A stretch of DNA of 64,000 nucleotides from an uncultured Candidatus Saccharibacteria bacterium (lineage in GTDB: Bacteria; Patescibacteriota; Saccharimonadia; Saccharimonadales; UBA7683): positions 12,138 through 76,137 of the forward strand of contig CAZIPE010000001.1 in assembly GCA_964541305.1 (NCBI GenBank). Reading direction: 5' to 3'. The notes beneath the pieces are model-generated. The model made no database searches and had not been told where the DNA came from. It saw only the letters and a program-made list of their open reading frames with translations. Below are positions 8,518-55,312 of this stretch, piece by piece. Position 1 is the stretch's first letter, and each line of letters begins with the position of its first letter. The position numbers were made by a program, and so were the translations under genes.

Positions 8518-11500
8518 TTGAAAAAACAACTTAGACTAAAACTAACTAAGTCTCTACTTGCTGTAATTGCTATAGTAAGTATTCTTCCTATTGTTCAACC
8601 GGTCTTTGCCCTACCAGAACCCACCGTATCTACTGACCCCGCAACGAACATCACCACAACAACTGCTACTCTAAACGGTACCGTCTCCGATGCCGGTGAT
8701 AGCCCAGTTACTTCACGTGGCTTCAACTATGGAACAACAGATAGTTACGGAAGTATCGCAAATGAGGTGATTCCTGAGAGTTATGAATACGTCTCGCAGT
8801 GGGGCTCAGCAGCGACAAATGATGGCAAGCTAAGCGCTCCTGATTCTGTCGTTATTGATTCTGCCGGTAACCGGTATGTATCGGATACCGATAACCACCG
8901 CATCCAAAAATTCAACAGCAGCGGTGTCTATCAGTCACAGTTCGGGGGCCCCACATTCGGATCTGGCGATGGTGAATTTATTTCTCCAAAAGGTATGGCT
9001 ATCGATTCGGGTGGCAATCTGTATGTCGCAGATTCGGGTAACCACCGCATCCAAAAATTCAACAGCAGCGGTGTCTATCAGTCACAGTTCGGGGGCAGTG
9101 GTACTGGCGATGGCCAGCTCAATAGACCCGACTCTGTCGTAATTGATTCGACTGGCAACATTTACGTTGCAGATACTAATAATCACCGCATCCAAAAATT
9201 CAACAGCAGCGGTGTCTATCAGTCTCAGTTTGGCTCTTACGGCTTTGGCGACGGCCAGTTTTATGCTCCACGAGGTATCTCTTTTGATTCTAGCAATAAT
9301 ATATATATCGTCGATTCAAACAACTCTCGCGTCCAAAAATTCAACAGTAGCGGCGTTTACCTATCCCAGTTTGGAGGCATTGGTTCGGGTGATGGCCAGT
9401 TTAACACTCCCTATGGCATAACTATAGATGCCAGTAACAATCTTTACGTTGCAGATACAAATAATCACCGCATCCAAAAATTCAACAGTAGCGGTGTCTA
9501 TCAGTCTCAGTTTGGCTCTATTGGCTCAGGTGATGGCCAGCTATTTCAACCTTCGGGCATTACGCTCGATACTGACGGTAGCTTTATGATTGCAGACACT
9601 GGAAACAACCGCATTCAGAAATTCAATAGCAGTGCCGTCTATCAGTCGAAATTCGGAATGAACTGCTCGGGTAATAGCCAGTTCAACTTCATTCAAGGCG
9701 TCGCAATCGACCCCGTCGGTGACGTATACGTCTCCGATGCCGACGACAAATGTGTCCAGAAATTCAACAGCACTGGCTTCTACCAGTCCCAGTTTGGCTC
9801 TTTTGGTACCCAAAATGGTCAACTTAACTTTCCTGGAAAAATTAATATAGACCCCAGTGGCAACATTTTTGTTGCTGATACGGTAAATAGTCGGGTCCAG
9901 AAATTCAATAGCAGCGGTGTCTACCAATCCCAATTTGGCGGTGGGGGCGCAGGTAATGGCCAGTTTACTAATCCCCGCGACCTCGCGTTTGACTCTTTTG
10001 GCAACATCTATGTTGTGGACAGTAGCAACCACCGTATTCAAAAATTCAATAGCAGCGGTGTCTACCAATCCCAGTTTGGCAGCCTAGGTTCTGGCGATGG
10101 CCAGTTTAATGGGCCAGTCGCTATCGCTGTAGATTCGTTCGATAATATCTATGTTGCAGATACAAATAATCACCGCATCCAAAAATTCAACAGCAGCGGT
10201 GTCTACCAGTCGAAATTCGGAAGTTACGGCTCTAGTAACGGCCAGTTTGCCGGTCCGAATGATCTCACATTTGACTCTCTCGGGAACATCTTTGTCCTCG
10301 ATACATATAACAACCGAGTCCAAAAATTCAACAGCAGTGGTGTCTATCTATTACAATTCGGTAGTGTCGGCTCTGGCAATGGCGAGTTTAGTCTGCCCCG
10401 AGCTATAGCTATCGATTCGAATGACACCATATACATAGGAGATACTCTTAATGAGCGCGTCCAAACATTCACTCAAGGCATGAACGAGGGAGCTTTTAGC
10501 ACTAACCTAACAAATCTGACCTGTGGAACAACCTACCATTATCAAGCCTATGCTAACAATAGCCATGGATCTACCCAAGCTATTGATGCTACCTTTTCCA
10601 CTGAAGCATGTGAACCAGGTCCCCCAACTAATCTTTCCGCTACTGCCAGCTCACCCTCGTCCATTAACATAACTTGGGACGAGCCCCAGGAGGCAGGGGA
10701 TTCTGCTATTTCCTACTATATAGTCTCCCTCAGGAAAGACGGAGATATTGACTGGGTATCTGCGCTGACGCCGGATAACAATACTACCTTTACTTGGATT
10801 GGTTTGGAGCCGGATACCCAGTACGAAATTAAAGTCAAGACTCGAAATACCAACGATTATATAAGTATATATTCAAATATAGTTACCGCGACTACCGATA
10901 TCTACGTAAATCCTACACCTGATCCACCAACTAACCTCCAGGCTACCATCGGCTCTTCAAGCACTATCAATGTGACGTGGAATGCGCCGGTAAACACTGG
11001 TGATTCACCGATTTCAAAATACTATATTTATTATCAAAAAGTGGGTGACGGTTCTTGGGGCAGCCTTGATCCAGATAATGACAACACATCTGCAACCATA
11101 TCGGGTTTACAACCGAGTACACAATACAACATTAAGGTGATTGCCAGAAATAGCAACAATAACGATAGTATCGACTCCGAAATTATTACCGCGACCACAG
11201 CTACTCCGGATTTTTATCTCATCACTGATTGTCAGCAGTTGCAGGATATTCAAAACGATCTTGTTGGAAACTATGAACTTGCGAGAGATATTGATTGTTC
11301 CGACAGCATCAATTGGAATGGTGGAAAAGGGTTTATACCAATAGGATCGCCGCTAACGGCCTCCCCGTTTTCCGGGATAATCGCAGGAAATAACTATACT
11401 ATTGAAGATCTATATATTAATCAAGATGGAGAGGAGTATGCTTTTGCAGCACTTTTTGGCGGTACTGATGGTGCTTTGATTCAAGACTTGCGTGTCGTCC

Positions 11501-13851
11501 GTCCTGTGATTTCTGCATTGAACTCATCTTTTAGTATTCCTGCGACTTTGACTGCATATGATGCCAGTACATCTTCCAAAACAACTACTTTTAACAATGT
11601 GCATATTGTTGATGCACACCTGGAGGGCGGAGGTGAGCTGATTACGGTAGCGGGTGGAATGGTGGGGCTTACTCAAAATTCAGGAACGGCAGCAGATAAC
11701 CTAAATGAGTTTCAGGGGACAATAGAACTTCATGGATCAATGGGCCAACTGGTGGTAGCTGGAGGCCTGTACGGTCAAATGGACGGCGGCATTCGGTCTG
11801 TTAATAATAGTTATGCAGTTGCTGATATTACTATCGAGAATACATTTTCAGGTTCAGGTGATTCATATAGTATAGCAGGGGGACTTCTCGGTGGGAATGG
11901 ATTAATTCAAAGGGAACCCACGCAATCAATATTTAATCACAGCTATGCTGCTGGCAGTATCTCTCACAATGGTGTTGATCCAAACGGCGGGATCGCGCTC
12001 GGGGGAACAACTGGATTAGTAACCAGGGATGGCTCTATAAGCAACACCTTTGCTCGTAACACCCTTACAAACACGCAATCTGATGCTACGGAGTTTGTTG
12101 GCGGTGTTGTCGCAGGCTTCTATGGTTCTGGGGATCGATCCTTTACCAACAACTACTTCGACGCCGACCAAGCCGGCACCACCGACTGCATCGATCCAGT
12201 CTTCGGCTCGATCTCCGGTTGCACCCCCATTCAAGGCCAACCCAACTACTTCTACAACAACACCACCAACGCCCCCCTCAACACTTGGGACTTCGACAAC
12301 ATCTGGAAGACTACCAGTACTCTCCCCGTTTTCGGAGAAAAAGTTCTGACTAGTATTACCGCCATCCCTGAATCGCGCCTCAACCCTGATCCAGTAACCC
12401 CACCAGCCGGCGGTGTCCCCGCCATCGCTGAACTGACTAAGAAACTAAAGGCCCCCACAGTCCTTACGCAACTGGCAGCTCAGGAGACCACCTCAGCTCC
12501 CAAAGAAGATACCGGCATCCTTGGTGCAATAAAACGTTTCTTCAAGAACATACCGGGGTCTGTCTTAGTCAGCTTCCCCTACATTCTGTTTGCTCTGCTT
12601 CTTCTGGCTGCTGGAGCTATGCTCGTTCAATTCCTCATTGGCTCCCGTAGACTTAAAGAGACTAAACTCCTCATTGCCAAACAAAAAGCCGTAGCCGAAG
12701 AACGAGACACCTTCTGGCACCTGGCTGCCAATTACCTCAGGGCTCCCATTACTCTCATGATCGGTGGCGTCGAGCTCCTGAGCACCGACAAAGATATTCG
12801 CTTGCCGGCTGTGGCTCAGCTGGAAGTCTTTGCTAAGAACTTACAAAAGAAAGTATTTGCCATTATGTCCCACATAGAACAAAGCCGCACGCTGCAGGAT
12901 ATCCATTGGCCTGAGCTGGAGAGCGGTGGCAGAGTCCTCACACAACTTAAGTTCTGGCTCCCGGTAGGCCTGGTTGCTTTCTTTGCCGTTTCCATGAACC
13001 TGGTCGCTAAGAACTACCGTAACCTCAGTGTGAGCACTACGAACCTGGCTATTCAGCTCCTTATCTTCATCCTAGTCTCAGTCTTGTTCTACTGGGTACT
13101 CAGTGCCCTGGGTCTCGTGAACCGAAAACGCAAACAAGCTCAGGCACTGCTGGAGCAGCAGTCAGCTACTCTCGATGATGCCCGTACCTACTTCATTGAG
13201 CAATCTGCTGCTACCCTCGACAAAGACCTATCTGACTTTGAAGCTCAACTCGACAGCATACCCAAGAAAGCTGCCTCGGTCGGTATTATCCATGAAGGCG
13301 CCCACCGTCTTAGAACCCTCATAGATAGCTTCGAGCTACTGGTCGCTGCCCAAAACAACAAACTAGACAACCTGTCTCCTGCCACGGCTCACACCCAGCT
13401 CAACACCATCTTCGACGGTGTCCTTGCCTCCCTGCAGCCCATTATTTCCCAGAAACAACTCAAGGTTGTCACTCCCAACCTCAACAACGTCACCCTCCCC
13501 GGTAACGCACTGTTACTTAACCAGGTCATTGGTAGTGTGGTCTCTAACGCTGTCGCCTTTAGCCCTTCTGGAAGTACCATACAACTTGATCTCAAACAAC
13601 ACAAAGACGGTACCCGTCTTAGTGTGACCAACCAAGGAGAGACCATTGATGAAGACCAGCTGTCTCATGTCTTTAGTCCTCTTACCAAAGCTGATGGCTA
13701 CGACGCCCTTCAACTTGACCACGGCGGCCTGGGGGTCAACCTCTACATAGACAGACTGATTATGCAGCACCTGGGAGGTGGCATAAGTGTGGCTTCAGAC
13801 GCGTCCAAAGGTACGACGCTTACTATGTTGTGGCCGAAAAATATAACATAG
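8518..13851 (+). CDS. Giant (1777 aa) membrane sensor histidine kinase with extracellular NHL-repeat propeller(s), FN3 domains and GLUG domain
   Basis: TTG start with AAGGGGAA SD. Signal peptide, then about 14 tandem NHL repeats (NHRIQKFNSSGVYQSQFG...) and 3 FN3-like modules (PPTNL..SxI.ItW). GLUG motifs (AGGLLGGNG..SYAAG). TM helices around aa 1320 and 1480-1540. H-box-like HLAANYLRAPI and HEGAHRLRTL. C-terminal HATPase_c with N, G1 and G2 boxes (NAVAFS, TNQGETID, GGLGVNLY). Confidence 0.85.
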   Translation: MKKQLRLKLTKSLLAVIAIVSILPIVQPVFALPEPTVSTDPATNITTTTATLNGTVSDAGDSPVTSRGFNYGTTDSYGSIANEVIPESYEYVSQWGSAATNDGKLSAPDSVVIDSAGNRYVSDTDNHRIQKFNSSGVYQSQFGGPTFGSGDGEFISPKGMAIDSGGNLYVADSGNHRIQKFNSSGVYQSQFGGSGTGDGQLNRPDSVVIDSTGNIYVADTNNHRIQKFNSSGVYQSQFGSYGFGDGQFYAPRGISFDSSNNIYIVDSNNSRVQKFNSSGVYLSQFGGIGSGDGQFNTPYGITIDASNNLYVADTNNHRIQKFNSSGVYQSQFGSIGSGDGQLFQPSGITLDTDGSFMIADTGNNRIQKFNSSAVYQSKFGMNCSGNSQFNFIQGVAIDPVGDVYVSDADDKCVQKFNSTGFYQSQFGSFGTQNGQLNFPGKINIDPSGNIFVADTVNSRVQKFNSSGVYQSQFGGGGAGNGQFTNPRDLAFDSFGNIYVVDSSNHRIQKFNSSGVYQSQFGSLGSGDGQFNGPVAIAVDSFDNIYVADTNNHRIQKFNSSGVYQSKFGSYGSSNGQFAGPNDLTFDSLGNIFVLDTYNNRVQKFNSSGVYLLQFGSVGSGNGEFSLPRAIAIDSNDTIYIGDTLNERVQTFTQGMNEGAFSTNLTNLTCGTTYHYQAYANNSHGSTQAIDATFSTEACEPGPPTNLSATASSPSSINITWDEPQEAGDSAISYYIVSLRKDGDIDWVSALTPDNNTTFTWIGLEPDTQYEIKVKTRNTNDYISIYSNIVTATTDIYVNPTPDPPTNLQATIGSSSTINVTWNAPVNTGDSPISKYYIYYQKVGDGSWGSLDPDNDNTSATISGLQPSTQYNIKVIARNSNNNDSIDSEIITATTATPDFYLITDCQQLQDIQNDLVGNYELARDIDCSDSINWNGGKGFIPIGSPLTASPFSGIIAGNNYTIEDLYINQDGEEYAFAALFGGTDGALIQDLRVVRPVISALNSSFSIPATLTAYDASTSSKTTTFNNVHIVDAHLEGGGELITVAGGMVGLTQNSGTAADNLNEFQGTIELHGSMGQLVVAGGLYGQMDGGIRSVNNSYAVADITIENTFSGSGDSYSIAGGLLGGNGLIQREPTQSIFNHSYAAGSISHNGVDPNGGIALGGTTGLVTRDGSISNTFARNTLTNTQSDATEFVGGVVAGFYGSGDRSFTNNYFDADQAGTTDCIDPVFGSISGCTPIQGQPNYFYNNTTNAPLNTWDFDNIWKTTSTLPVFGEKVLTSITAIPESRLNPDPVTPPAGGVPAIAELTKKLKAPTVLTQLAAQETTSAPKEDTGILGAIKRFFKNIPGSVLVSFPYILFALLLLAAGAMLVQFLIGSRRLKETKLLIAKQKAVAEERDTFWHLAANYLRAPITLMIGGVELLSTDKDIRLPAVAQLEVFAKNLQKKVFAIMSHIEQSRTLQDIHWPELESGGRVLTQLKFWLPVGLVAFFAVSMNLVAKNYRNLSVSTTNLAIQLLIFILVSVLFYWVLSALGLVNRKRKQAQALLEQQSATLDDARTYFIEQSAATLDKDLSDFEAQLDSIPKKAASVGIIHEGAHRLRTLIDSFELLVAAQNNKLDNLSPATAHTQLNTIFDGVLASLQPIISQKQLKVVTPNLNNVTLPGNALLLNQVIGSVVSNAVAFSPSGSTIQLDLKQHKDGTRLSVTNQGETIDEDQLSHVFSPLTKADGYDALQLDHGGLGVNLYIDRLIMQHLGGGISVASDASKGTTLTMLWPKNIT
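8880..10460 (+). repeat. Tandem ~120-126 bp DNA repeats encoding the NHL blades
   Basis: Near-identical segments caccgcatccaaaaattcaacagcagcggtgtctatcagtc recur about 14 times. They generate the spurious antisense ORFs in this region. Confidence 0.8.
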
Positions 13852-13890
13852 AATTACCAGTCATTTGCATAAGCATCATCTGATATTTCG

Positions 13891-13899
13891 TGCTACAAT
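13891..13899 (+). promoter_or_regulatory. Extended -10 TGcTACAAT 12 nt upstream of ATG (possible leaderless start)
   Basis: TGCTACAATAGA 12-mer shared with position 8468. No SD precedes the ATG at 13912. Confidence 0.3.
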
Positions 13900-13911
13900 A
13901 GAGCTTAAGTT

Positions 13912-16900
13912 ATGAGGGTAAAAAAAGACAGGAAGCTGGTATTTTTTAAACGTATACAAGACGTGTACGTCCGTTTGGGCTATTCATCTGTTAGTAAAGC
14001 CATAAAACGGTGGCTTCGGTTACCCGCTAAAGCTATCGCTGGAACCTTATTGACTGTGCACGGTTGGTTGCTACGGCATAGCCGAGTATATCGGGCGGTG
14101 AGTCGCTATGGCTCTCATCATCCCCGCCAGCGGATACTAGCCTCGTTTCTTACCGTACTTTTTGCTGGCTCTCTCCTCCTTCGTTTTGGGGCATATGCTT
14201 CAGACGTTAACAAGGTCTGGGACTTTTCGAATCCCACCGATTATTCTCTTGAGGACAGCGACAAACTCGAATATGAGGGTAGCTCTGTTCGCCTAAAGGC
14301 GCAAAATTACGCCACTGATTCAAATACAAAAGCTCTGTATCATCTTGATGAAGCCTCAGGAACGACGGTCGCGGATAGTTCAAGCAACTCCAATACCGCA
14401 ACCGCTACGAATCCAACTTGGGGAACGGGAAACCTCAATAATGCCCTCCAACTAAACGGCACCACAAGTCAGCTTAGTGCGGATGATTCAACCTCTCTTT
14501 CGCTTACTCAATCAAATACGCTGGAGGCCTGGACCAAATTCAATGACTCATTTACCGCAGGCAGTACTGCGGGCAGACAGTCGGTCATAGATAAAGGCCC
14601 CTATCAGCTGTATTATGATGACGAAACGGGCAAGGCTGTCTACGAGTTGCAAAACAGCTCGGCAACTAACTGGCAACAGCAAGCCGGCGGCGGCGTAAAC
14701 CGTAGCTGGGACCTTGATGGCAAAAACTCCGCCGATTCCTCAGTTGGAATCGGGAATGATCTCTACATAGGGACAGGTAGCTCTACGGCTGGTGACGCTG
14801 AAGTGTGGAAACTTTCAGCCGCTGGTGTGTGGACACAAATTGGCGGAGCAGGGCTCAATAATAGTTGGGCCGCCAACACCTTCGAGACTATTGCCTCTTT
14901 GGAAACTGATGGCACCAACCTGTATGCCGGTACCGGTCTATCGAGTGGAGATGGTGAGGTCTGGATGTGGAACGGTACCACTTGGTCACGCATAGGCGGT
15001 GATGCTATTAACTCAAGCTGGGCAGTTAACACCTATAACTCGGTTCTAAGTATGGATTACTTTGGCGGCAATCTTTACGCGGGTCTCGGTAGCGGTACGG
15101 GCGGAGGTGAGGTTTGGCGATATAACGGAAGCAGCTGGACCAAGATTGGTGGCGATGGACTCAGCAGTAGCTGGGCGGCTGCCTTTACCGTCAAGCGATT
15201 AGAAAATGATGGCACCAACCTGTACGCCGGTACCGGGAACACTGCCGGCATGGCGGACGTATGGCGCTGGAATGGTACCATTTGGGCCCAAATCGGTGGT
15301 GACGGAATCAATAGTAGCTGGGCGGCCAGTACCTACGAGGAAGTGCTTAGTTCATTCTATATGGGCTCCAACCTGTACATTGGGCTTGGCACCACAGCCG
15401 GTGACGCCGAGGTGTGGCGCTGGAGTGGAGGTGCCTGGACAAAACTTGCCAGCAGTGGTGTCGGCTTCCCTGCTGCGACCTACACCGGCGTGTATAGCCT
15501 AAGTGGTGATGGCACCAATCTCTATGCTGGGGTCGGCTCCGGAGTAAATCTCGGCGACGTCTGGAAATATAACGGTAGCACCTGGACTCAAGTTGGTAAT
15601 GATGGCCTCAATTCAAGTTGGACAGGAGGCAGATTAGTCTCCACCATGGCGTATGTCAACTCTAAATTATTTGCTCACAACACATTTAGTGCGGTCGCGA
15701 CCATACCGCTCTATTCATATAACGGTTCAGTCTGGCAACGCGAAGGAGGGCAGTATTTTGATGGCAGTTGGGGTTACACCGCTTTTAACGCCGTACAATC
15801 TATGACCACAAGCAGTGGTAAGCTGTATGCTGGCCTGACCTCGACCTATGGTGGAGCGATTGTATTTGAGTTTAATGGAGGTGTGTGGCAACAGATCGGT
15901 GGCAACCTAACAAATGGAAGTTGGGATCTCGGCACTTTTAATGCGATCGAGAGCATGACTTCATACAACGGTAATCTCGTTGTCGGTACGACTGGTACTG
16001 TTAATGGAGACGCCGAAGTGTGGTCGTGGGACGGCAGTACCTGGACTAAACTTGGTGGTGACGGCTTAAGTTCAAGCTGGAACGTCAGCTATAGTGCAAC
16101 GAAGAGCCTAGCGGTAAATGCGGGTATACTCTACGCCGGTGTGGGTTCCACCGGCAATAATGGTGGCATCTGGAAGTACGAAAGCGGCACCTGGGTTAAG
16201 ATTGGCGGCGACGGTACCAATGGAAGCTGGAACAACGTATTTCGCTATGTGACTTCGATGAACTTCTATAACGGTGAGTTGGTGGCTGGCGGTACAGGTA
16301 GTACTACATCCTCTGCTGAAGTTTGGAAGTGGAATGGATCTTCGTGGACAAAAATTGGCGGCGATGGTGTGGGCAGTAGCTGGAATGCCGCTAACTACTT
16401 GGAGGTTAATGCACTGGCAACCTATCAGGGTAAGCTGATTGCCGGGATTGGTGGATCAGCGGGCGATGGTGAGGTATGGCGATATGATGGCACGACCTGG
16501 ACATTGATTGGTGGCGATAGCGTCGACAGTAGTTGGGATGGCACTACTACTCACCGTCGGGTGGCCACATTAACTGTCTACAACGGCGATCTTTACGCGG
16601 GAACGAGCGGTTCAGCAGGCGATGGTGAGGCCTGGAGATATAACGGCTCTACGTGGTCCCAGGCTGGTGGTGACAGTATAAGTAGCAGTTGGACGAATGC
16701 AATTATTTCTGTGCGATCAATGGTGGTATATAAAGGGAAATTATACACTGGCTTAGGAGACAATATATCGTTACATCCATTAGTGTATTCACTTGGTAAT
16801 AACGGCTATTTGGAGTCAACAAATAGTTCCTACAATACCGATTGGCGACATATTGCTGCCACCTATGATGGTACAACTATGAAGCTTTACATTAATGGGC

Positions 16901-19900
16901 AGCTTGATGCTAGTACGGCCGTTTCGCTTTCTATGTCTGACACTTCCTCACCGCTGCTTATAGGTTCGGCACAAGGGCCGGTGACCGCCAGTAAGGGTAC
17001 TGGTAAATTTAAGGGTATGCTCGATGAAGTTCGCATTAGTAATTCTGCGCGGACCAACTTCACAACGACACCTTATACCAGCGAAAGAGTGTCTGCTCGG
17101 CTTGCTACGGCAGATTACACCTCCGGGATTGCCTCGTGGGATGATTATATTTCTTCCGAAACAACAAATGGCGGCACCCTCACCTATCGTCTCTCAGATG
17201 ATGACGGCACCACCTGGAAATTCTGGAATGGTTCTGCTTGGGCTGTCTCTGCTGATCTGAGCCAGGCCAATGGTGCGACTGACATTGGCGATCATATCGC
17301 CACTTTCCCAGTCTCTACTGGCGGCATAACCTGGCAAGCGGTGTTTGATGGTGATGGCAATCAGCGCGTACAGCTTAATTCGGTTTCGCTTGCAGCCACT
17401 GCAGATAACACCGCACCTGCAGCAAATGCATCGAGCATTGTAATGAAAACGAGTCCTTCCGGCCCTACGATCAATTCCGGACAATGGACAAATGCCCAGG
17501 AGCCGTACTTTTCGTGGACACCTGGGAACGATGCCCAATCTACCATTAAGGGTTACTGTCTCTATCTAGGTACATCTCAAAGTGATGACCCGGTAACTTC
17601 CAAGGGTCTGCTTGGCACAAGTCCTCTCGATACCGACGGTGAATGTCAATTCGCTGTTGCCGGAGACTCGGTAGATCTTTCCACATCAGGTTATCTCGGA
17701 AGCCCTCTCGTCAGTTCAAATTCAACTTACTATCTTAATGTTAAAGCCATAGATAATGCCGGTAATGTATTCACTGGTGCCAGTGAGAGTTTTGCGTTTA
17801 AATTCGACAATACCAATCCGACCAATCCTCTCTTTGTGTCTGCGCCCTCACAATTTGTGTCTAACAAGCAGGTTACAATTACCTGGCCAACTTCTAATGC
17901 CACCGCTGCAGACGATAATCATTCTGGTGTTGCAGGTCTGCAATACAAAATTGGCGCTGGTGGAACCTGGTATGGCGATGGGCATACAGGTGCTCAAGAT
18001 GTTACCGACCTTCTGGCAGACGACGGGAGTTACCAGACAATCGATCCAATCGACTTTAATGCATTGAGTGATGGAAATAACACCATCTACTTTAGAACTT
18101 ATGACAATGCCGGTAACTTTTCTGCTTCGACAGTGACAGGAGTGATTAAAATTAATACCACCTCACCTACTGGACCACAAAATGTGACTGCCACACCAGC
18201 TACCAATACCACAAATGCCTTTGCTTTCAGCTGGAGTCCGCCAGCTACATTTGGAGGTTCAGCAAGCAACTTGGAGTACTGCTACTCGATCAATACTCTT
18301 CCCTCTGTTAATACTTGTACGTATACCGACCCCGGCGTGACAAGTCTTGTTTCCGGAGCGTATGCAACTCAGCCTGGCGAAAACACTTTTTATGTTGTGG
18401 CTAAAGATGAAGCTGGAAATATTAATTACGCTACCACCAGCAGTGCTATATTTACTGCCAACACCTCTGCTCCTGGTATTGCTCTTAATCTGGATATCGT
18501 CGATATAAGTGTGAAATCGACTAATAATTGGCGTTTAGCACTATCATGGGACGAGCCGACCGATGCGGGAGCTGGAATAGCAAGCTATAAGGTATATCGT
18601 TCTGCTGATAATATAACGTTTACCAACGTTGCCTCGACCGCTGGAACCAGCTATGTTGACGGCGGACTCTCTCAGCAACCGTATTACTACAAGGTTCGAG
18701 CCTGCGATTCTGCGAATAATTGCGGTGCTTATACGAGTGCCGTAGACGAAACACCAACCGGAAAGTACACGACTGCTGCAAATAGTACCAGTGCGCCGGA
18801 AGTATCAAGTGTCAGTACGCGTAAAGCAACCATTAGTTGGTCTACGGATCGTCAAAGTGATAGCCGCATTCAATATGGCATAAAGAGTGGTCAGTATTTC
18901 GCTACCGAAGCTGCCATATCTGATCAAGTCACCGACCATGAAGTACTCCTTAATAATCTGAGCGCTGGCACCACCTATTATTACAAAGCTAAATGGACAG
19001 ATGAAGATGGAAATACGGGACAATCGGCAGAGCTTAGCTTTAAAACAGCACCAGCCCCAGTCGTAAAAGAGGTCACTTCAGAACCATCCTTGTCAGATGC
19101 AGATATTAACTTCACCTCCAAAGATGCCGCAAAAGTGAAGATATACTTTGGTAAGTCAGAAAGCTTTGGAGGCCTCACCACCCTAAACACGTCGTTGGCT
19201 GAATCGAAATACGGCACCACGCTTACGGGCTTGGACGACGGAAGTAAGTATTTCTTTAAACTCAATACTCTCGACAGCGATGGTAATGAATACGAAGGAA
19301 ATGTCTATTCTTTTACCACTCCCCCACGTCCTCGCATTACGAATTTACGATTCCAACCTGTAAAAGACCAGCCCAGTAGCACCCAGAGAGTAACCTGGAA
19401 TACCAACGTTCCTTCGAGTAGTGAAATTACCTACGGCGTTCGTCGACCTACGCAGTCGCTCTCGCAATCTAAGCTCACCACTGAGCATGAGATAACAATT
19501 AAGGGTCTATCTGATGACAGTGACTACGTTTTAATAGCCCGGTCGCGTGATGCCAGCGGTAATGTTGCCACCTCCGATCAGCAAAGCTTTAAAACCGCTC
19601 TCGATACCCGCCCGCCGAAAATTGCCGATATTACGGTCGATACCTCAATACGCGGTACCGGGGCTGAAGCGCGCGGTCAGGTGGTTATTAGCTGGAAGAC
19701 AGATGAACCAGCCACCAGTCAGGTTGCTTACGGTGAAGGATCATCCGGTTTTCTCTCGAGTGTCAGCAGCGAGGATGCCAAGTTAACTACCGACCATGTT
19801 GTAGTGGTATCAGATCTTTCAACCTCACGTGTCTACCATTTCGAAGCACGATCATTTGACCGGGCTCGGAATGAGGCCAAGGGTGATCAACAAGTTGCCA

Positions 19901-19974
19901 TCATCGGTCGAGCCAGTGAAAATGTGCTCAGCATCATATTCAACGCGCTGCAAAAGATGTTCGGAATAAACTAA
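13912..19974 (+). CDS. Giant (2020 aa) N-terminally anchored surface protein: LamG/ConA-like domains, ~14 x 55-aa Trp/Gly-rich propeller-like repeats, FN3 and purple-acid-phosphatase-N-like FN3 modules
   Basis: N-terminal TM anchor (LASFLTVLFAGSLLLRF). LamG-like signatures (W.HIAATYDG..MKLYINGQ...FKGMLDEVRISN). Repeats of consensus GDGEVWRYNGSxWTKIGGDGxxSSW. C-terminal modules with SW.TD...Y......H.V.L..L..GT.YYYK pattern repeated 4 times. Confidence 0.85.
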   Translation: MRVKKDRKLVFFKRIQDVYVRLGYSSVSKAIKRWLRLPAKAIAGTLLTVHGWLLRHSRVYRAVSRYGSHHPRQRILASFLTVLFAGSLLLRFGAYASDVNKVWDFSNPTDYSLEDSDKLEYEGSSVRLKAQNYATDSNTKALYHLDEASGTTVADSSSNSNTATATNPTWGTGNLNNALQLNGTTSQLSADDSTSLSLTQSNTLEAWTKFNDSFTAGSTAGRQSVIDKGPYQLYYDDETGKAVYELQNSSATNWQQQAGGGVNRSWDLDGKNSADSSVGIGNDLYIGTGSSTAGDAEVWKLSAAGVWTQIGGAGLNNSWAANTFETIASLETDGTNLYAGTGLSSGDGEVWMWNGTTWSRIGGDAINSSWAVNTYNSVLSMDYFGGNLYAGLGSGTGGGEVWRYNGSSWTKIGGDGLSSSWAAAFTVKRLENDGTNLYAGTGNTAGMADVWRWNGTIWAQIGGDGINSSWAASTYEEVLSSFYMGSNLYIGLGTTAGDAEVWRWSGGAWTKLASSGVGFPAATYTGVYSLSGDGTNLYAGVGSGVNLGDVWKYNGSTWTQVGNDGLNSSWTGGRLVSTMAYVNSKLFAHNTFSAVATIPLYSYNGSVWQREGGQYFDGSWGYTAFNAVQSMTTSSGKLYAGLTSTYGGAIVFEFNGGVWQQIGGNLTNGSWDLGTFNAIESMTSYNGNLVVGTTGTVNGDAEVWSWDGSTWTKLGGDGLSSSWNVSYSATKSLAVNAGILYAGVGSTGNNGGIWKYESGTWVKIGGDGTNGSWNNVFRYVTSMNFYNGELVAGGTGSTTSSAEVWKWNGSSWTKIGGDGVGSSWNAANYLEVNALATYQGKLIAGIGGSAGDGEVWRYDGTTWTLIGGDSVDSSWDGTTTHRRVATLTVYNGDLYAGTSGSAGDGEAWRYNGSTWSQAGGDSISSSWTNAIISVRSMVVYKGKLYTGLGDNISLHPLVYSLGNNGYLESTNSSYNTDWRHIAATYDGTTMKLYINGQLDASTAVSLSMSDTSSPLLIGSAQGPVTASKGTGKFKGMLDEVRISNSARTNFTTTPYTSERVSARLATADYTSGIASWDDYISSETTNGGTLTYRLSDDDGTTWKFWNGSAWAVSADLSQANGATDIGDHIATFPVSTGGITWQAVFDGDGNQRVQLNSVSLAATADNTAPAANASSIVMKTSPSGPTINSGQWTNAQEPYFSWTPGNDAQSTIKGYCLYLGTSQSDDPVTSKGLLGTSPLDTDGECQFAVAGDSVDLSTSGYLGSPLVSSNSTYYLNVKAIDNAGNVFTGASESFAFKFDNTNPTNPLFVSAPSQFVSNKQVTITWPTSNATAADDNHSGVAGLQYKIGAGGTWYGDGHTGAQDVTDLLADDGSYQTIDPIDFNALSDGNNTIYFRTYDNAGNFSASTVTGVIKINTTSPTGPQNVTATPATNTTNAFAFSWSPPATFGGSASNLEYCYSINTLPSVNTCTYTDPGVTSLVSGAYATQPGENTFYVVAKDEAGNINYATTSSAIFTANTSAPGIALNLDIVDISVKSTNNWRLALSWDEPTDAGAGIASYKVYRSADNITFTNVASTAGTSYVDGGLSQQPYYYKVRACDSANNCGAYTSAVDETPTGKYTTAANSTSAPEVSSVSTRKATISWSTDRQSDSRIQYGIKSGQYFATEAAISDQVTDHEVLLNNLSAGTTYYYKAKWTDEDGNTGQSAELSFKTAPAPVVKEVTSEPSLSDADINFTSKDAAKVKIYFGKSESFGGLTTLNTSLAESKYGTTLTGLDDGSKYFFKLNTLDSDGNEYEGNVYSFTTPPRPRITNLRFQPVKDQPSSTQRVTWNTNVPSSSEITYGVRRPTQSLSQSKLTTEHEITIKGLSDDSDYVLIARSRDASGNVATSDQQSFKTALDTRPPKIADITVDTSIRGTGAEARGQVVISWKTDEPATSQVAYGEGSSGFLSSVSSEDAKLTTDHVVVVSDLSTSRVYHFEARSFDRARNEAKGDQQVAIIGRASENVLSIIFNALQKMFGIN

Positions 19975-20741
19975 TGGAACCAGCTGTAAAGACATCACAT
20001 TCTGGCAGAAACATGTGTGAGTTTAAGAATGTGTCTAAATCGTTCACATCCAAAGACCTGACTATCTCAGTTCTCAAAAATATAAACTTCACTATCCCTG
20101 AAGGCAGTTTTACAATACTCTATGGCCCATCTGGAAGTGGCAAAACGACCATCTTGAATACTATGATTGGTCTTCAACCTGCCACAAGCGGGAAGGTCTG
20201 TGTGAACGGCACTGATCTATACAGTCTCGATAGCGATAAACGGGCTCACTTTCGTGCTTCTACGCTTGGTATGGTGCACCAAGATAACTATTGGGTAAAC
20301 AGTCTTACCGTTCTTGAAAATATCGCCTTACCACTCCTGCTGGCTGGCTGGGACCATAAAAAGGCCTTGATGGTAGCACAACAAAGCTTGGTTCGAGTGG
20401 GGCTGGAGAGTTATGGTAACTATAACCCCACAGTACTCTCCGGGGGGCAGCAGCAACGCGTTTCTTTTGCTCGAGCTACCGTCATACGGCCAAAACTGCT
20501 AGTAGCTGATGAACCGACAGGCAATCTTGATAGCAAAAATGGCGAGCTTATTATTAGCCTTCTACAGGATTTCAACAGTCGCTACAATGCAACCGTAGTG
20601 CTCGTTACTCATAATCTTGAATTACTTGCTCTCAGTAATAATCTTATTAGCGTCAAGGATGGTCAGATTGTTGAATCAAGCACCCCCGATCCTACCGTCA
20701 AGTTCATGACAGCTTCAATTGCAGGGAAGAAACCAAAATGA
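19974..20741 (+). CDS. ABC transporter ATP-binding protein, MacB/LolD/FtsE family
   Basis: Walker [10 protein letters not shown], signature [14 protein letters not shown], Walker [13 protein letters not shown]. The start overlaps the upstream stop (TAATG). A later start at [11 protein letters not shown] (20013) is also possible. Confidence 0.8.
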
Positions 20742-22021
20742 AAATTCCTAAAACAAATCTCAAAAAAAATGTAAATGAAGCGAAAGGCACTATTCGCTGG
20801 AGCTTACTGATAGATATTGCATTCAAAAATCTATTTTACAAGAAGCTCCGGACCTCACTGACTATTATTGGTGTTGTCATCGGTGTAGGTGCGGTGGTAT
20901 TCCTACTTGCTTTTGGTTTTGGCCTACGTGATGTAGTAACTCGGCAGGTTGTGGATTCAAATTCTATTCGTACCATTGATGTTGAGAGTGCGAAATCTCA
21001 GCTGGTGACACTTAACCAGGAGACTATCGGCAAAATTACGCAAATTGAAGATGTTACCGATGTCTCACGGGTATATAGTGTCGCTGGTAATACAACCTAT
21101 GGAAATTCTCAAATTGAATCAGTGCTATACGGGGTTGATCAAGAGTATCTCGATCTGGCTAATGTAAAACTCTCAGCTGGGCAGCCACCCCAGTTTAAAA
21201 ATGCTGACGATATTTTCGTCAATACTTCTTATGCCAAAGCAATCGGAATTTCAGACAGCAAAGACCTTATAGGCAAGGAGCTCGAGGTGTCATTAGAGGC
21301 TCCGGTGCCGCAGCTTGCTGAAGAAGCTGAAAATAACGATACTGGTCCGGAGTCCGCTGTCGCTACGAAAGAAGTGGTGATTAAGGGCAAGGTGGCAAGC
21401 GTATTTGAAACAGGCAGCGGTTCTGAACTGTACGTTTCGAGTAACATATTTGATGATTTTGGCTTTGAAGATGCAAGTCAGTTGAAGGTACTGGTTGATC
21501 GAAAAGAACAAGTTGTTGAGGCGCAGAAGAAGATTGAAGCTCTGGGACTTATTACGGTTTCACCACTTAGCACGCTCGAACAAATTAACCAGGTATTCGG
21601 TTTTCTTAACCTACTATTTCTGGGCTTTGGTGGCATTGGTCTCATTATTGCTGTTTTAGGTATGTTTAACACACTCACTATCTCGCTACTCGAGCGCACC
21701 AAAGAAATTGGTTTGATGATTACACTTGGAGCACGCAAAAAAGATATTCTACGCTTGTTTGTAGTAGAAGCCGTCGGTCTTTCAATGATTGGTGGTGCTC
21801 TCGGAGTGGTAGTAGCGTATGGGATAAGTCGAATTGCTGATGTGGTGCTCAATGGGTTCGCCCGTTCAAGAGGTGTCACCGACACATTCACTATTTTCGC
21901 GTTCAAGCCCGTGCTGATTTTGGCTGTCTTTGTTTTCTCGGCCCTCCTTGGTTTACTTGTGGTCTATTTCCCCGCCAAGCGAGCCGCAAATATTAACCCA
22001 ATTGAAGCTCTCAAGTCGTAA
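20738..22021 (+). CDS. ABC transporter permease, FtsX/MacB-type (type VII ABC)
   Basis: ATGA overlap with the ATPase gene. One N-terminal TM, a ~230-aa periplasmic domain, then three C-terminal TMs with FtsX-like LxERxKEIGxMxxLGA motif (LLERTKEIGLMITLGA). Confidence 0.8.
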   Translation: MKIPKTNLKKNVNEAKGTIRWSLLIDIAFKNLFYKKLRTSLTIIGVVIGVGAVVFLLAFGFGLRDVVTRQVVDSNSIRTIDVESAKSQLVTLNQETIGKITQIEDVTDVSRVYSVAGNTTYGNSQIESVLYGVDQEYLDLANVKLSAGQPPQFKNADDIFVNTSYAKAIGISDSKDLIGKELEVSLEAPVPQLAEEAENNDTGPESAVATKEVVIKGKVASVFETGSGSELYVSSNIFDDFGFEDASQLKVLVDRKEQVVEAQKKIEALGLITVSPLSTLEQINQVFGFLNLLFLGFGGIGLIIAVLGMFNTLTISLLERTKEIGLMITLGARKKDILRLFVVEAVGLSMIGGALGVVVAYGISRIADVVLNGFARSRGVTDTFTIFAFKPVLILAVFVFSALLGLLVVYFPAKRAANINPIEALKS

Positions 22022-22055
22022 GTGCTATACTGATGAGCATAAGAAGGATTAACCC

Positions 22056-23168
22056 ATGACTTTAAATGTAAATATTGATACGAAAAATGTTATAAAAGTA
22101 TTCACGCTTGCAGTACTCTTCATTGTTGGTGTTTTTGCCCTCATTCGTATGTATGACGCGCTTGTGTTGGTTGCTACGGCATTCTTTTTTGCTCTTGCAC
22201 TGAATCCTGCGGTGAGTTTTTTGAGTAAATACATGCCGAAAAAAAAGCGTGGTCCTGCGGTATTTATTGTTATGCTTAGTGCATTCTTCTTGCTGAGCGT
22301 GTTAATCTTCTCTATTCTTACGCCAGTTTCGCGTGAAGCGTCTGCTTTTTCGGAGACAATACCACAAAGAATCGATGAGCTTAATAGTCAGGACTCGCCA
22401 TTTGGAAGATTTGTCTACAAATACGATCTTCAGGATGATATTACAGAAGTGATTAACTCTGCCCAAAGTCGACTAGTCAGCTTATCGAGCAATGCAGTGA
22501 GCAAGGTTGGTCAGTTTGGCAATAGTGTGATCATGTCAATCGCTGGAATGGTTATAACGGTACTAATGCTTACTAACGGCCCAGCGCTCTTTAAGCGAGT
22601 TGAACGCAACGTGTACCGTGACCAGAAGTTACGTGCTCGACACGAAAATCTTTTGAATAAAATGTACGATGTTGTCACTGGGTATGTGAATGGGCAGTTA
22701 CTTGTTGCTGTTGTCGCATCGCTTGTGGCGCTTGGGGTGCTTTTTCTGCTAGGCGTACCTTATCCACTCCCTCTTGCTGCAATCGTATTTGTATTCGGTT
22801 TAATCCCGCTCATCGGCAATACAATTGCCGCAATACTAGTAGTTTTGTTTACGCTGATACTTAAAGATCTTACTTCAGCTCTCATTCTTATCGCTTTCTT
22901 CGTGCTCTATCAGCAGATTGAAAATGCCACCCTGCAACCCCTTGTGCAAGGCAGAGCTACACAACTTCCTACGCTTGTCATCTTTGTGTCAGTCATCTTA
23001 GGCGTGGCGCTTATGGGCCCAATCGGTGGTTTATTCGCTATCCCTGCTGCTGGTTGCGCTAAGGTTCTGCTCGCAGATTATCTTGAACATCGTCCTGCTC
23101 CAAAGAATAGCGGTGCCAAAAACCTATCTGCCTCGTTAAAGCATCACATCAAAAAAGCCGTTAGCTAG
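22056..23168 (+). CDS. AI-2E family transporter (UPF0118/PerM-like)
   Basis: Eight predicted TMs, length ~370 aa, C-terminal GPIGGLFAIPAAG motif typical of the family. AAGGA SD. Confidence 0.65.
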   Translation: MTLNVNIDTKNVIKVFTLAVLFIVGVFALIRMYDALVLVATAFFFALALNPAVSFLSKYMPKKKRGPAVFIVMLSAFFLLSVLIFSILTPVSREASAFSETIPQRIDELNSQDSPFGRFVYKYDLQDDITEVINSAQSRLVSLSSNAVSKVGQFGNSVIMSIAGMVITVLMLTNGPALFKRVERNVYRDQKLRARHENLLNKMYDVVTGYVNGQLLVAVVASLVALGVLFLLGVPYPLPLAAIVFVFGLIPLIGNTIAAILVVLFTLILKDLTSALILIAFFVLYQQIENATLQPLVQGRATQLPTLVIFVSVILGVALMGPIGGLFAIPAAGCAKVLLADYLEHRPAPKNSGAKNLSASLKHHIKKAVS

Positions 23169-24535
23169 ACTCTACTCCAGATAGTTTTGTCGGCAGTATC
23201 TTTTACTTCAATACCGCGTTTTTTTAGCGTATCACGTAGTTCATCTGCTTTTACCCAGTCTTTTGCCTGTCGTGCCTGTTCGCGCTGTGCTATGAGCTGT
23301 TTTTCTCCATCGGTAATATCATCATCCAATAAATCTAAACCTAGTACGTCACGAATGGTGAGCAGGGTGTCTCGAGATGGCATTGCCTGGGCTTCTTCAA
23401 CGTTGTCAAAATAGGCATCAATTTTAGCCAGAGCTATCGGACTGTTCAAATCGTCTGAGAGGGCATCCATAATTTCCTGGGATATATCAGGTTGATCATT
23501 TTTTAAAGTTTCAATCTGCCAGCGACGATTGAACATAGCGCGCCACCTATTCAAACGGTTCTGACTTGCCTCTAAAATATCCCAAGTAAAATTACCTTCC
23601 GTGCGGTAGTGCTTGCTTAGGATGAGTAGTTTAAATGCTTCTGTCGAAAAGTTTTTGGCTTTAATATCTGCCAGGGTGTATATATTGCCAAGACTTTTAC
23701 TCATCTTTGTTCCGTCAACTTTGATGTGATTATTATGTAGCCATATCTGTGAAAATGGTTTTCCTGTTACACTCTCAGTTTGGGCAATCTCATTGGTGTG
23801 ATGCACGGGGATGTGATCTATGCCACCGGTATGAATATCAATCTGATCGCCCAGAAACTCTCTGGCTAGTACTGAACATTCGAGATGCCAACCAGGAAAG
23901 CCAATTACCCAAGGACTTTCCCATTCCATGTCTCGCTTCTCGCCCGCATGAGAAAACTTCCATAGTGCAAAATCAGTTGGGTTCTTCTTCCCTTCAACTG
24001 GCACACGAGCGCCAGGTTTTAAGCCTTCAATATCGAGCATTGCCAATTTGCCATAATCCGATAACTTGCTGGTATCAAAGTATACTCCGTCATCGGGGAT
24101 CACGTAGGTAAAACCTTTTTCCTCAAGTTCTTTGACAAATTCAATTTGCTTCTCAATATAATCAGTAGCTCGCGGCAGTTCATCTGGGGTGATGAGCCCT
24201 AGCTCAGCAGATTCCTTTTCTGCTATTTCAATGTATTTCTCAGCAACCTCCCAAGCGCTAATACCTTCGCGTTTTGCACCTTTTTCAAGCTTATCTTCAC
24301 CGCTATCCTCGTCGGACGTAAGATGCCCGACGTCAGTAATATTTTGTACACGTGTGACGTCGTAGCCATCAGCTTTTAGCGTGCGCACAAGGATATCCCA
24401 GTAAATATACCCCACCCAGTTACCAATATGGGGTTGTGAGTACACCGTCAGACCACAGGTATACATTTTCACCTTTTTGTCATCAAGTGGTTTGAATTCT
24501 TCTTTTTTTCTGGTGAGCGTATTATACAGCTTCAT
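23165..24535 (-). CDS. cysS: Cysteine--tRNA ligase
   Basis: Class I signatures HIGN (HIGH) and KMSKS, plus CysRS-like core (CGLTVYSQPHIGN, WHLECS). GGAG SD precedes the second ATG; the ORF track starts 4 codons earlier. Confidence 0.9.
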   Translation of the reverse strand: MKLYNTLTRKKEEFKPLDDKKVKMYTCGLTVYSQPHIGNWVGYIYWDILVRTLKADGYDVTRVQNITDVGHLTSDEDSGEDKLEKGAKREGISAWEVAEKYIEIAEKESAELGLITPDELPRATDYIEKQIEFVKELEEKGFTYVIPDDGVYFDTSKLSDYGKLAMLDIEGLKPGARVPVEGKKNPTDFALWKFSHAGEKRDMEWESPWVIGFPGWHLECSVLAREFLGDQIDIHTGGIDHIPVHHTNEIAQTESVTGKPFSQIWLHNNHIKVDGTKMSKSLGNIYTLADIKAKNFSTEAFKLLILSKHYRTEGNFTWDILEASQNRLNRWRAMFNRRWQIETLKNDQPDISQEIMDALSDDLNSPIALAKIDAYFDNVEEAQAMPSRDTLLTIRDVLGLDLLDDDITDGEKQLIAQREQARQAKDWVKADELRDTLKKRGIEVKDTADKTIWSRV

Positions 24536-53536: not shown

Positions 53537-53611
53537 AGGGGCATAGTACAACGGTTAGTATAAGGGTCTCCAAAACCCTAGATCGTGGTTCGATTCCACG
53601 TGCCCCTGCCA
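53537..53611 (+). tRNA. tRNA-Trp (anticodon CCA), CCA-encoded
   Basis: Hand-folded cloverleaf: acceptor AGGGGCA/TGCCCCT, D stem GTAC/GTAT, anticodon arm AGGGT-CTCCAAA-ACCCT, T arm CGTGG-TTCGATT-CCACG. On the opposite strand relative to secE. Confidence 0.8.
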
Positions 53612-53676
53612 AGCATAAGCACTATAAACAGAAAGAAGCTTCACAGTTTCTTTTTTATAATTGTTGCTTGAATTTT

Positions 53677-54081
53677 ATGTGTGATTTTGTCAGATTGATA
53701 CGTATGGGTAGTGAATATCGTGAAAAGATTATGAATGCAGATTTGTGCGAAAAGTGTCCAGCTAGACACGGAGAGGTGTTTACTGCAAAACTTCGTGGCT
53801 CTTCTTTTCGTGGGAGACTAATCAGAGACGGCGAAGAGTTTACAATTGATAATTGCATTATTGCCGTTAGAGATTTTCTTATTGCTAATGTACAGATAGC
53901 CAATATCGATATGGCGTCTGCTGAGCAAGATGCTGAGGTGCTCACAAGTATCTTCGAAACGAGTATAGATGGGTGTCAAGGTCCAGCAGAAGTCGCTACT
54001 GGACAAGGAATAGGTATGTTCTGCACACCAATCAATAAAGCTACTGACGACTTTATAGATGTAAACTACGACCAGCAGTAG
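53677..54081 (+). CDS. Hypothetical protein
   Basis: ORF downstream of tRNA-Trp, with TTATAAT upstream. No motif. Confidence 0.3.
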   Translation: MCDFVRLIRMGSEYREKIMNADLCEKCPARHGEVFTAKLRGSSFRGRLIRDGEEFTIDNCIIAVRDFLIANVQIANIDMASAEQDAEVLTSIFETSIDGCQGPAEVATGQGIGMFCTPINKATDDFIDVNYDQQ

Positions 54082-54381
54082 CTATTATTAAAGTTCTAAC
54101 CTGACCAATTATTCCCTGCCAAACTAAAGAATAGCTTGATCGATTATTAAAAGAAGAGACGCATTACGCGTCCCTTCTAACTAGGGAAGGCTTGCACCCA
54201 CAGATGTGATCTACTAACTAACAAACTATCTACCGTAACTTACTAACTCGAATGATCACATATACTGAGAACAAAGTGCTGTATCACTTGGTCTTCCGTG
54301 TAATAATATATCAAAGGTAAAAAGCAACGTCAACAAATATTTGTAGTATTATTTATAACAAAAAAAGGATGCTAAAATTTA

Positions 54382-54585: not shown

Positions 54586-54587
54586 TA

Positions 54588-54863: not shown

Positions 54864-54874
54864 TTACACTAATA

Positions 54875-55309: not shown

Positions 55310-55312
55310 AAC
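55288..55312. repeat. 25-bp exact direct repeat, copy 1 (TAGATAGCCCACCGAAGCAATAAAA)
   Basis: Identical copy at 55572-55596. The ~259 nt between them contains nested inverted repeats (GTACCCC...GGGGTAC). Confidence 0.7.

Follow-up and report, generated by a model that had tools for sequence, protein, structure and literature searches.

A LamG-nested array of Kelch/Rax2-like blades encoded with a MacB-type transporter in Candidatus Saccharibacteria

Blades of about 50 residues and four strands, in which ...LYAGG... is followed by ...W(D/N)G..W..(L/I)GG, form long arrays in surface proteins of the Rax2/DUF5122/'delta-60' families (PF12768, PF17164, TIGR02608). Tandem seven-bladed propellers are also known outside the membrane in BT4663 (PDB 4a2m; Reg_prop and Y_Y_Y), a glycan-binding periplasmic sensor of a Bacteroides hybrid two-component system, and two seven-bladed propellers form the substrate cleft of the GH74 xyloglucanases. 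LamG and fn3 domains are typical surface or glycan-binding modules, and transporters of the MacB/FtsEX/LolCDE type are known mechanotransducers. The present analysis concerns a protein that recalls each of these systems, encoded in a 64,000-nucleotide stretch of DNA, here called the window, from an uncultured Candidatus Saccharibacteria bacterium (assembly GCA_964541305.1, contig CAZIPE010000001.1, positions 12,138 to 76,137). Saccharibacteria live attached to other bacteria and, to our knowledge, few of their surface components are understood. A single open reading frame (ORF) at window 13912..19974 on the forward strand encodes a protein of 2020 residues and contains the whole of the stretch 14650-16900, in which an earlier note, made from the letters alone, had described a novel tandem repeat with the spacing of beta-propeller blades.

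Sequence comparison strongly supports placing this repeat as a distinct, diverged and un-modelled branch of the Kelch / Rax2 (delta-60)-like group of four-stranded blades. The fold and the blade type are therefore already known; the branch is unannotated and large.

The repeat and its relation to Kelch and Rax2 blades

Thirteen complete units can be placed with the W..IGG motif as a common reference point; their first residues are 274, 325, 376, 425, 476, 525, 575, 626, 678, 728, 779, 830 and 882. They cover residues 274-932 (DNA 14731-16707) at a spacing of 49-52 residues, giving a period of about 51 residues and not the 55 first proposed. A hidden Markov model (HMM) built from the 13 units scores every one of them at 58-79 bits, compared with 0.1 bit for the best of 200 shuffles of the region (whole-sequence score), and the tandem repeat is thus real. 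At the edges of the array the same HMM recognizes two half-units, at residues 250-267 (HMM positions 30-47) and 934-950 (HMM positions 3-19). The 13 complete units and the two edge half-units therefore amount to 14 blades, in agreement with the approximately 14 copies counted earlier, and the consensus quoted at that time (LYAGxG...GDGEVWRYNGSxWTKIGGDGxxSSW) is correct. The consensus of the repeat is here written V.S[LM]..(Y)GG.LYAGLG..AGDAEVW.[WY]NGS.WTKIGGDG.NSSW, and that of the wider family, taken over 483 units, is ASVESLAVYGGKLYAGLGSTAGDAEVWRYNGSTWTKIGGDGVNSSWAASTY. The most conserved positions among these 483 units are W33 (98%), G38 (97%), W45 (96%), W26 (92%), G37 (92%) and G15 (91%).

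The mean identity between units is 39% in protein (range 12-65%) and 48% in DNA, and Tandem Repeats Finder reported no repeat in DNA 12000-20000, the periodicity being visible at the protein level only. This low identity and the silence of Tandem Repeats Finder indicate that the array is old and diverged, with no recent amplification. The NHL repeats of the gene upstream, on the other hand, are still visible in DNA as 141-bp tandem repeats (window 8884-10208, 66-75% matches). Such DNA-level periodicity is absent from the Kelch-like repeat, and the difference suggests that the NHL array is much younger or is undergoing homogenisation.

Direct searches with the window sequence recover none of the described propeller families. 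More specifically, the repeat region (14650-16900) has no match in Pfam (E ≤ 10), NCBIfam (E ≤ 1) or PHROGs. The Pfam models Kelch_1-6 give no match to the repeat even at E ≤ 10, which leaves it outside the Kelch family by this test, and the NHL, FG-GAP and WD40 models are equally silent at that cut-off. The whole protein matches none of PF12768, PF17164 and TIGR02608 and remains below their curated thresholds, and a PDB sequence-profile search with the orthologue alignment returned LamG and fn3 matches only and no propeller. With respect to BNR, there is no Pfam match in the repeat and the Asp-box hairpin S-x-D-x-G-x-T-W is absent from the blades, its sole exact copy lying outside the repeat; the GGDGxNSSW loop that follows strand D is not an Asp-box because its spacing differs. 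The earlier reading by eye, in which the repeat fitted none of the Kelch, BNR/Asp-box, FG-GAP and NHL consensuses, therefore stands so far as direct matches in Pfam, NCBIfam and PHROGs are concerned. These null results, together with the PDB search and the distinctive, highly conserved GGDGxNSSW loop (W 96%, GG 92-97%), favour a truly new blade type that would be unrelated to Kelch, BNR, FG-GAP, NHL or other Pfam propellers.

The relatives of the repeat nevertheless largely refute a new blade type and leave it quite improbable. Family members with 36-38% identity to the query score above the Pfam gathering thresholds of Kelch models: P0035 passes Kelch_3 (34.6 bits against a threshold of 22), P0139 passes Kelch_4 (31.3 against 21.6 bits) as well as Kelch_3, and P0071 passes Kelch_3, Kelch_4 and Kelch_1. 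A single-sequence search reaches, in the range of E 1e-15 to 1e-20, the Rax2/DUF5122/Reg_prop protein P0086 (E 2.8e-20) and the Kelch protein P0089 (E 6.5e-15). Seven concatenated copies of the family consensus match PF12768, the Rax2 C-terminal propeller, at E 1.4e-11 and 44.8 bits (cut-off 28.8), a match that belongs to an artificial consensus concatemer; the same construct does not match TIGR02608. In hhalign comparisons the profile of 483 family units aligns with 137 units from Rax2/DUF5122-annotated proteins at 97.0% probability (E 8.8e-11, 38 columns, all four strands) and with Kelch units at 91.8% (E 7.3e-7, 28 columns, strands B-D), and the 13-unit profile aligns with P0086 at 87.9%; the templates here were units from the query's own matches, anchored on W..G..W, a choice that favours similarity. 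The artificial nature of the concatemer and the choice of hhalign templates both weigh against the placement, as does the failure of the window protein itself to reach the threshold of any Pfam propeller model. It is on the threshold-passing homologues, the Rax2 consensus match and the hhalign alignments that the repeat is classed within the Kelch / Rax2 (delta-60) group. The new blade type of the earlier note is accordingly given up in favour of homology to Kelch/Rax2 blades, and a confident profile match to a known propeller family, which that note had named as the finding that would overturn it, was essentially obtained by proxy.

The layout of the unit, read by eye, also appears Kelch-like: strand A and a Gly pair come first, LYAGxG makes up strand B, and strands C and D carry an aromatic residue and a Trp, respectively. 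In the window unit, whose 51 residues fall within the 44-56 of a Kelch unit, these elements are L12-Y13-A14-G15-x-G17, W26 (strand C) and W33 (strand D), with G-x-G replacing the GG of Kelch and W replacing its Y. The apparent likeness to Kelch (Kelch_1/3/4/6, galactose-oxidase-type) covers unit length, strand layout, the Gly pair after strand B, the strand-C aromatic and the strand-D Trp, to which a probable 3+1 closure of the last blade may be added. It is limited by an hhalign match that covers strands B-D only and by the absence of Kelch structures from the top 50 fold matches. With the Rax2/DUF5122/'delta-60' families the window unit shares blade length, strand number, the sequence pattern given above and occurrence in long arrays in a surface protein; unlike them, it has G-x-G where they have 'GG.F' after strand B, a Trp in strand C, its own GGDGxNSSW loop and a position nested in LamG. 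The strand-C Trp and the conserved loop past strand D are traits specific to this branch.

Predicted fold and the split LamG domain

As judged from sequence, the 2020-residue protein is extracytoplasmic and multi-domain, with a head made up of a LamG domain that bears the 14 Kelch/Rax2-like blades; the location outside the cell is suggested by an N-terminal hydrophobic segment followed by A-x-A. The parts of the protein are as follows (window coordinates; AF2, AlphaFold2).

13912..14202, forward strand: N-terminal basic, His/Trp-rich part and one hydrophobic segment (residues ~75-96, ILASFLTVLFAGSLLLRFGAYA, then A-Y-A and SD), read from the sequence
14203..14658, forward strand: small beta-sandwich and N-half of the LamG (Laminin_G_3) jelly-roll, residues 98-249 (Pfam splice match; all-beta AF2 model)
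14659..14712, forward strand: N-terminal half-unit, residues 250-267 (SSATNWQQQAGGGVNRSW), strand D and SSW loop (unit HMM 30-47)
14731..15786, forward strand: units 1-7, residues 274-625, proposed first seven-bladed propeller (unit HMM, AF2, Foldseek)
15787..16707, forward strand: units 8-13, residues 626-932, proposed bulk of the second propeller (unit HMM, AF2, Foldseek)
16708..16779, forward strand: C-terminal part-unit, residues 933-956 (ISVRSMVVYKGKLYTGLG...), strands A-B of blade 14, leading into the LamG C-half (unit HMM 3-19)
16780..17061, forward strand: C-half of the same LamG domain, residues ~957-1050 (Pfam Laminin_G_3, splice test, PDB profile search)
17062..19974, forward strand: fn3/Ig-like beta-sandwich array, residues ~1051-2020, stalk or spacer (Pfam, NCBIfam and PDB profile matches)

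The hydrophobic segment has the features of a signal-anchor or long signal peptide, and in all orthologue N-termini that could be aligned a single hydrophobic segment likewise precedes A-x-A and a W(D/N)F motif.

The repeat had been described as flanked by LamG domains, a description that requires correction. In the intact protein, Pfam Laminin_G_3 matches residues 943-1048 only, over profile positions 45-146 (E 2.9e-16). The C-side piece alone covers profile positions 67-146 at 67.3 bits, and over the tests the C-half alone gave 60-67 bits with a profile start at 45 or 67 and an end at 146; in the PDB profile search it matches LamG domains (4qvs, pappalysin). The N-side piece alone (residues 130-250) matched no Pfam family. 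When the two pieces are spliced, the match extends over profile positions 1-146 at 72.3 bits, which amounts to membership over the full profile. Splicing adds few bits, yet the alignment then spans the full Laminin_G_3 profile, and this argues that the repeat array is inserted in a loop of a single LamG jelly-roll. The two flanks are therefore halves of one LamG domain, and the half-units of the repeat are located exactly at both LamG/repeat junctions. The nesting of two propellers within a LamG jelly-roll would be an unusual domain-in-domain arrangement.

The AF2 model of residues 100-1070, built with a 24-homologue alignment, is all-beta, with a mean predicted local distance difference test (pLDDT) of 86.8 and a predicted template-modelling score (pTM) of 0.81. 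Units 1-7 modelled alone (residues 268-632) reach a pLDDT of 89.3 and a pTM of 0.90, with 28 strands. DSSP assigns four strands to each 51-residue unit in both models, and Foldseek matches many propellers with a probability of 1.00. These models and matches bear out the earlier reading of the repeat as propeller blades and support a beta-propeller of four-stranded blades, for which ring closure is predicted. In searches of the PDB, the top Foldseek matches of residues 100-1070 are the tandem seven-bladed propellers Elp2, Aip1 (1nr0), GH74 xyloglucanases and the BT4663 periplasmic sensor. Identity to such tandem propellers is 9-14%, and the target-normalised template-modelling score (TMt) is 0.34-0.45, the values to be expected where one of two rings superposes and the second has another orientation. 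Units 1-7 match single seven-bladed propellers (GH74 halves, LGI1 EPTP) with a query-normalised score (TMq) of 0.60-0.65 and an identity of 11-16%.

In the predicted structure the most likely arrangement of the 14 blades is a pair of seven-bladed beta-propellers; 13 of the blades are contiguous units, and one would be put together where the ends of the array meet. The N-terminal half-unit probably supplies the 'velcro' strand of blade 14, and the AF2 model has a strand there, at residues 254-258; in two orthologues (L001 and L003) the C-terminal part-unit aligns to a nearly complete unit HMM. Unit 7 is the most diverged of units 1-7; together with unit 8 it has an atypical sequence (GG.YVN.SWG...LYAGTG...AGNA.VWE.DG) that is nonetheless kept among orthologues, and units 7-8 can be read as the junction between two rings. 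Across the family, the number of matched stretches per protein peaks at 7-8 and at 14-15, with some proteins at 21 or more. Array sizes were taken from these counts, and a local-HMM histogram was set aside as noisy because weak units break arrays. Full-length orthologues have 13 full units and partial ones, and a second architecture has 5-6 full units and 2 partial ones.

Alternatively, all 14 blades might close as one very large ring. Only one obvious split (velcro) blade is present, at the two ends of the array, and unit identities at lag 7 show no signal that would mark duplication of a seven-blade propeller; both observations are in keeping with a single ring. Such a ring is very improbable, given that the best matches are tandem seven-bladed propellers at a TMt of 0.38-0.45, which fits superposition of one ring, that units 1-7 alone reach a pTM of 0.90 and match seven-bladed propellers, that a seven-unit array is the commonest stand-alone form in the family, and that the distinctive junction at units 7-8 is conserved in orthologues. 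Counting against the arrangement in two rings, the 7+7 split, the assignment of units to rings and the velcro closure are deduced from lists of fold matches, the number of strands and the copy numbers.

The fold matches also bear on the possibility that the protein is a carbohydrate-active enzyme like the GH74 xyloglucanases; in that case its own LamG and fn3 domains would play the part of carbohydrate-binding modules. The overall two-propeller architecture is alike, GH74 structures are among the best fold matches of the large model (5jwz, 6p2o, 2cn2), and units 1-7 match 6p2m, 2ebs, 1sqj and 7kn8 at the highest single-ring TMq (0.63-0.65). Saccharibacteria, moreover, depend on host envelope material. 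An enzyme of this kind is nevertheless unlikely, as identity is only 12-16%, the PDB sequence-profile search matched no GH74 chain, and WD40, LGI1 and designed propellers match about equally well. Nearly every column that is invariant or close to it in the orthologues corresponds to a G, W, Y, S, D or E with a structural place in the repeat, with no unique catalytic-looking pair, and GH74 blades bear Asp-box motifs where the window unit has a different loop. The resemblance is one of fold only, with no sequence membership in GH74 and no catalytic residues identified.

BT4663, another of the top fold matches, resembles the window protein in its tandem seven-bladed propellers outside the membrane, and distant relatives of the repeat family have Reg_prop matches (P0086 at 47.8 bits, P0036 at 19 bits). 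The window protein differs in that it has no Reg_prop match, no fused kinase or receiver and a Y_Y_Y match only at E 0.21, and in that its partner is an ATP-binding cassette (ABC) transporter and not a phosphorelay.

The transporter operon and the proposed role of the head

Two transporter genes follow the surface-protein gene in the window.

19974..20741, forward strand: ABC transporter ATPase (Pfam ABC_tran, E 3.3e-30)
20738..22021, forward strand: MacB-type permease, MacB_PCD and FtsX (Pfam MacB_PCD, FtsX)

The ATG of the ATPase gene overlaps the stop codon of the surface protein (TAATG at 19972-19976) and the permease start overlaps the ATPase stop by 4 nucleotides; the surface protein is translationally coupled with the MacB-type transporter genes. 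The order of surface protein, ABC ATPase and MacB-type permease is found in 52 of the 54 assessable loci of species-level genomes. It recurs in five of five independent metagenomic loci that were read gene by gene, the surface protein often being called as two ORFs. Across loci, the gap from the aligned end of the surface protein to the ATPase measures 9-233 nucleotides. There is thus strong support for the surface-protein gene as the first of a conserved Saccharibacteria/Patescibacteria module with an ABC ATPase and a MacB-type permease. Between genomes, identity is 38-72% for the head (mostly 45-54%), 38-55% for the ATPase (median 46%) and 28-45% for the permease (median 40%). The identity of the head is comparable to that of the ATPase and the permease, and the head is thus not evolving faster than these housekeeping-type neighbours.

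The LamG-nested double Kelch/Rax2-like propeller is probably the ligand-binding head of a membrane-anchored envelope protein that works with the MacB-type transporter. That the head binds a ligand is suggested by the known roles of LamG, fn3 and propellers and by the occurrence of the same propeller downstream of a phage tail core. The LamG and double-propeller head would act as an extracytoplasmic ligand-binding module; its ligand may be a glycan or a protein on the envelope of the bacterium itself or of the host cell, and would be bound on the faces of the propellers or in the cleft that separates them. The ligand is probably conserved, given how slowly the head evolves, and the head would act with the co-transcribed MacB-type ABC transporter and not as a free, fast-evolving adhesin. 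The ligand- or host-binding role put forward in the earlier note is therefore plausible, since the same repeat makes up the C-terminal part of phage tail proteins.

Several considerations weigh against this role. The putative binding and the predicted location are read from sequence and predicted structure, and conservation of the operon is linkage, which does not by itself demonstrate a physical or functional interaction. The head adjoins the membrane anchor and, if that anchor is uncleaved, would lie near the membrane, an odd position for a long-range adhesin. In addition, the literature searched describes neither the repeat family nor the operon. The nesting of two propellers in LamG likewise appears to be undescribed there, as does the almost constant linkage of the gene, in Saccharibacteria, with a MacB-type transporter.

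An overlapping explanation, which is possible and clearly the less probable of the two, is that the protein is primarily an extracytoplasmic partner of the MacB-type transporter and that host adhesion is secondary. In one form of this explanation the ATP-driven movements of the transporter would be passed on to the head, in the way that FtsEX works on its own partners; in the other, ligand binding by the head would gate the transporter. The near-universal gene order with very short gaps and overlapping codons is consistent with such a partnership, as are the position of the head directly after the membrane anchor, its conservation to the same degree as the ATPase, the absence of a membrane-fusion-protein gene from the loci examined and the mechanotransducing nature of MacB/FtsEX/LolCDE-type transporters. 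Against it, the support is purely one of genomic linkage, and an apparent propeller-FtsX fusion is no true fusion.

This candidate fusion (P0035) was rejected because it derives from a frameshifted, internally deleted copy of the operon at locus L006 (GCA_041742135.1, 7235-10283). In this decayed operon a frameshift lies past blade 1 and a deletion joins blade 14 to the C-terminal helices of FtsX. The upstream ORF, in the other frame, holds the anchor, the LamG N-half and blade 1, and P0035 is the gene-caller product of the decay, a 760-residue 'Kelch + FtsX' protein.

The MacB, FtsEX and LolCDE systems resemble the window operon in that the genes of an ATPase and a four-helix MacB_PCD/FtsX permease stand beside that of an extracytoplasmic protein and are coupled to it in translation. 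The operon differs in its putative partner, a 2020-residue LamG/propeller/fn3 protein unlike any characterised one. A broader and still more tentative proposal is that the LamG/double-propeller protein and the MacB-type transporter constitute one conserved envelope machine for host attachment or material acquisition, in which ATP hydrolysis would be mechanically coupled to the outer head or the head would gate the transporter. If true, this machine would span Saccharibacteria and other Patescibacteria and would be an ABC-driven surface device without a characterised counterpart. Found in about 50 species-level genomes, with ATPase-like conservation and, nearly always, a MacB-type neighbour, the protein is a candidate, open to test, for a core device of the envelope or of contact with the host.

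Distribution of the repeat family and other features of the window

The earlier note had proposed looking for the repeat in other genomes, and a large family is indeed found. The 13-unit profile, searched against 1.84 billion cluster representatives, matches 9,859 proteins at E ≤ 1e-3, a number that falls to 2,431 at E ≤ 1e-10 and to 285 at E ≤ 1e-30. Full-length counterparts (about 1,900-2,100 residues, 14-15 stretches) are frequent among its best matches. Orthologue loci were identified by a single-protein scan of one genome per species with the 971-residue head. The scan returned 56 loci, of which about 50 span the whole head at 38-72% identity, the closest being L008 and L030 (71-72%, Saccharimonadia). 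Nearly all of these genomes belong to Candidatus Saccharibacteria/Saccharimonadia and a few to other Patescibacteria (Microgenomates, Woesebacteria, Moraniibacteriota); an identical gene was found on a Logan contig. A family of at least 2,431 clusters at E ≤ 1e-10 is almost invisible to Pfam, NCBIfam and PHROGs, and a dedicated model would label thousands of 'hypothetical' or 'LamG domain-containing' proteins, phage tail tips included.

The full Saccharibacteria-type operon was also seen on contigs titled as metagenome-assembled genomes of Gammaproteobacteria, Bdellovibrionales or Pseudomonadales (L012, L018, L032, L034, L040, L051, L056 and L060). These cases are probably mis-binned or mislabelled and do not reflect true occurrence in those groups.

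A seven-blade module of the same repeat is located downstream of the conserved core in phage tail proteins (Phage-tail_3 and Rcc01698_C, phrog_4271 'tail protein'; P0049, P0056, P0057, P0061-P0065, P0068, P0070 and P0071). The phrog_4271 proteins belong to the same repeat family and in whole-protein matches are 37-52% identical to the query; they differ in having one propeller and no LamG host domain, and in being part of a viral particle rather than a cellular envelope. The occurrence of the repeat in both phages and cellular surface proteins suggests module exchange. Giant proteins with 25-61 matched stretches, often limited to profile strands A-C, were also encountered (P0121, of 5722 residues, P0141, P0151, P0138 and P0146).

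Within the 2020-residue protein, the C-terminal array of about 950 residues contains three Pfam fn3 matches, Pur_ac_phosph_N-like and Big_13 matches, an NCBIfam OmpL47-type domain that scores under its cut-off, and Titin/fn3 matches in the PDB profile search. One exact Asp-box, SDDDGTTW (within TYRLSDDDGTTWKFWNGSAW), occurs at window 17194-17217 (residues 1095-1102), in the beta-sandwich just past the LamG C-half, and the sequence around it is kept in orthologues (YRLS..DGTTWKYWNGS.W). The GC content over the surface-protein gene is 0.48-0.51, compared with 0.41-0.45 elsewhere in the window (scanned around 12001-20000). The repeat region contains 17.9% Gly and 6.2% Trp, and amino-acid composition may explain the higher GC of the gene.

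The ORF upstream of the surface-protein gene (window 8518-13851, forward strand, 1777 residues) has NHL repeats (10 or more, 307 bits), a pair of fn3 domains, a long region without assignment, hydrophobic segments and, at its C-terminus, HATPase_c; it looks like a giant sensor kinase with an extracellular NHL propeller. In the loci of other genomes this NHL/histidine-kinase gene is not regularly found beside the propeller gene. Pattern scans for promoters and terminators over 13700-23400 gave sites no more numerous than in shuffles. A gene for a transporter of the AI-2E family is located close to the operon in two cases, downstream in the window (22056-23168, forward strand) and upstream in a CPR2 Saccharibacteria locus (L001, 3349-4428). 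Finally, the window carries tRNA genes at 53537-56905, Trp-CCA on the forward strand and Thr-GGT, Tyr-GTA and Thr-TGT on the reverse strand, which are unrelated to the repeat protein.

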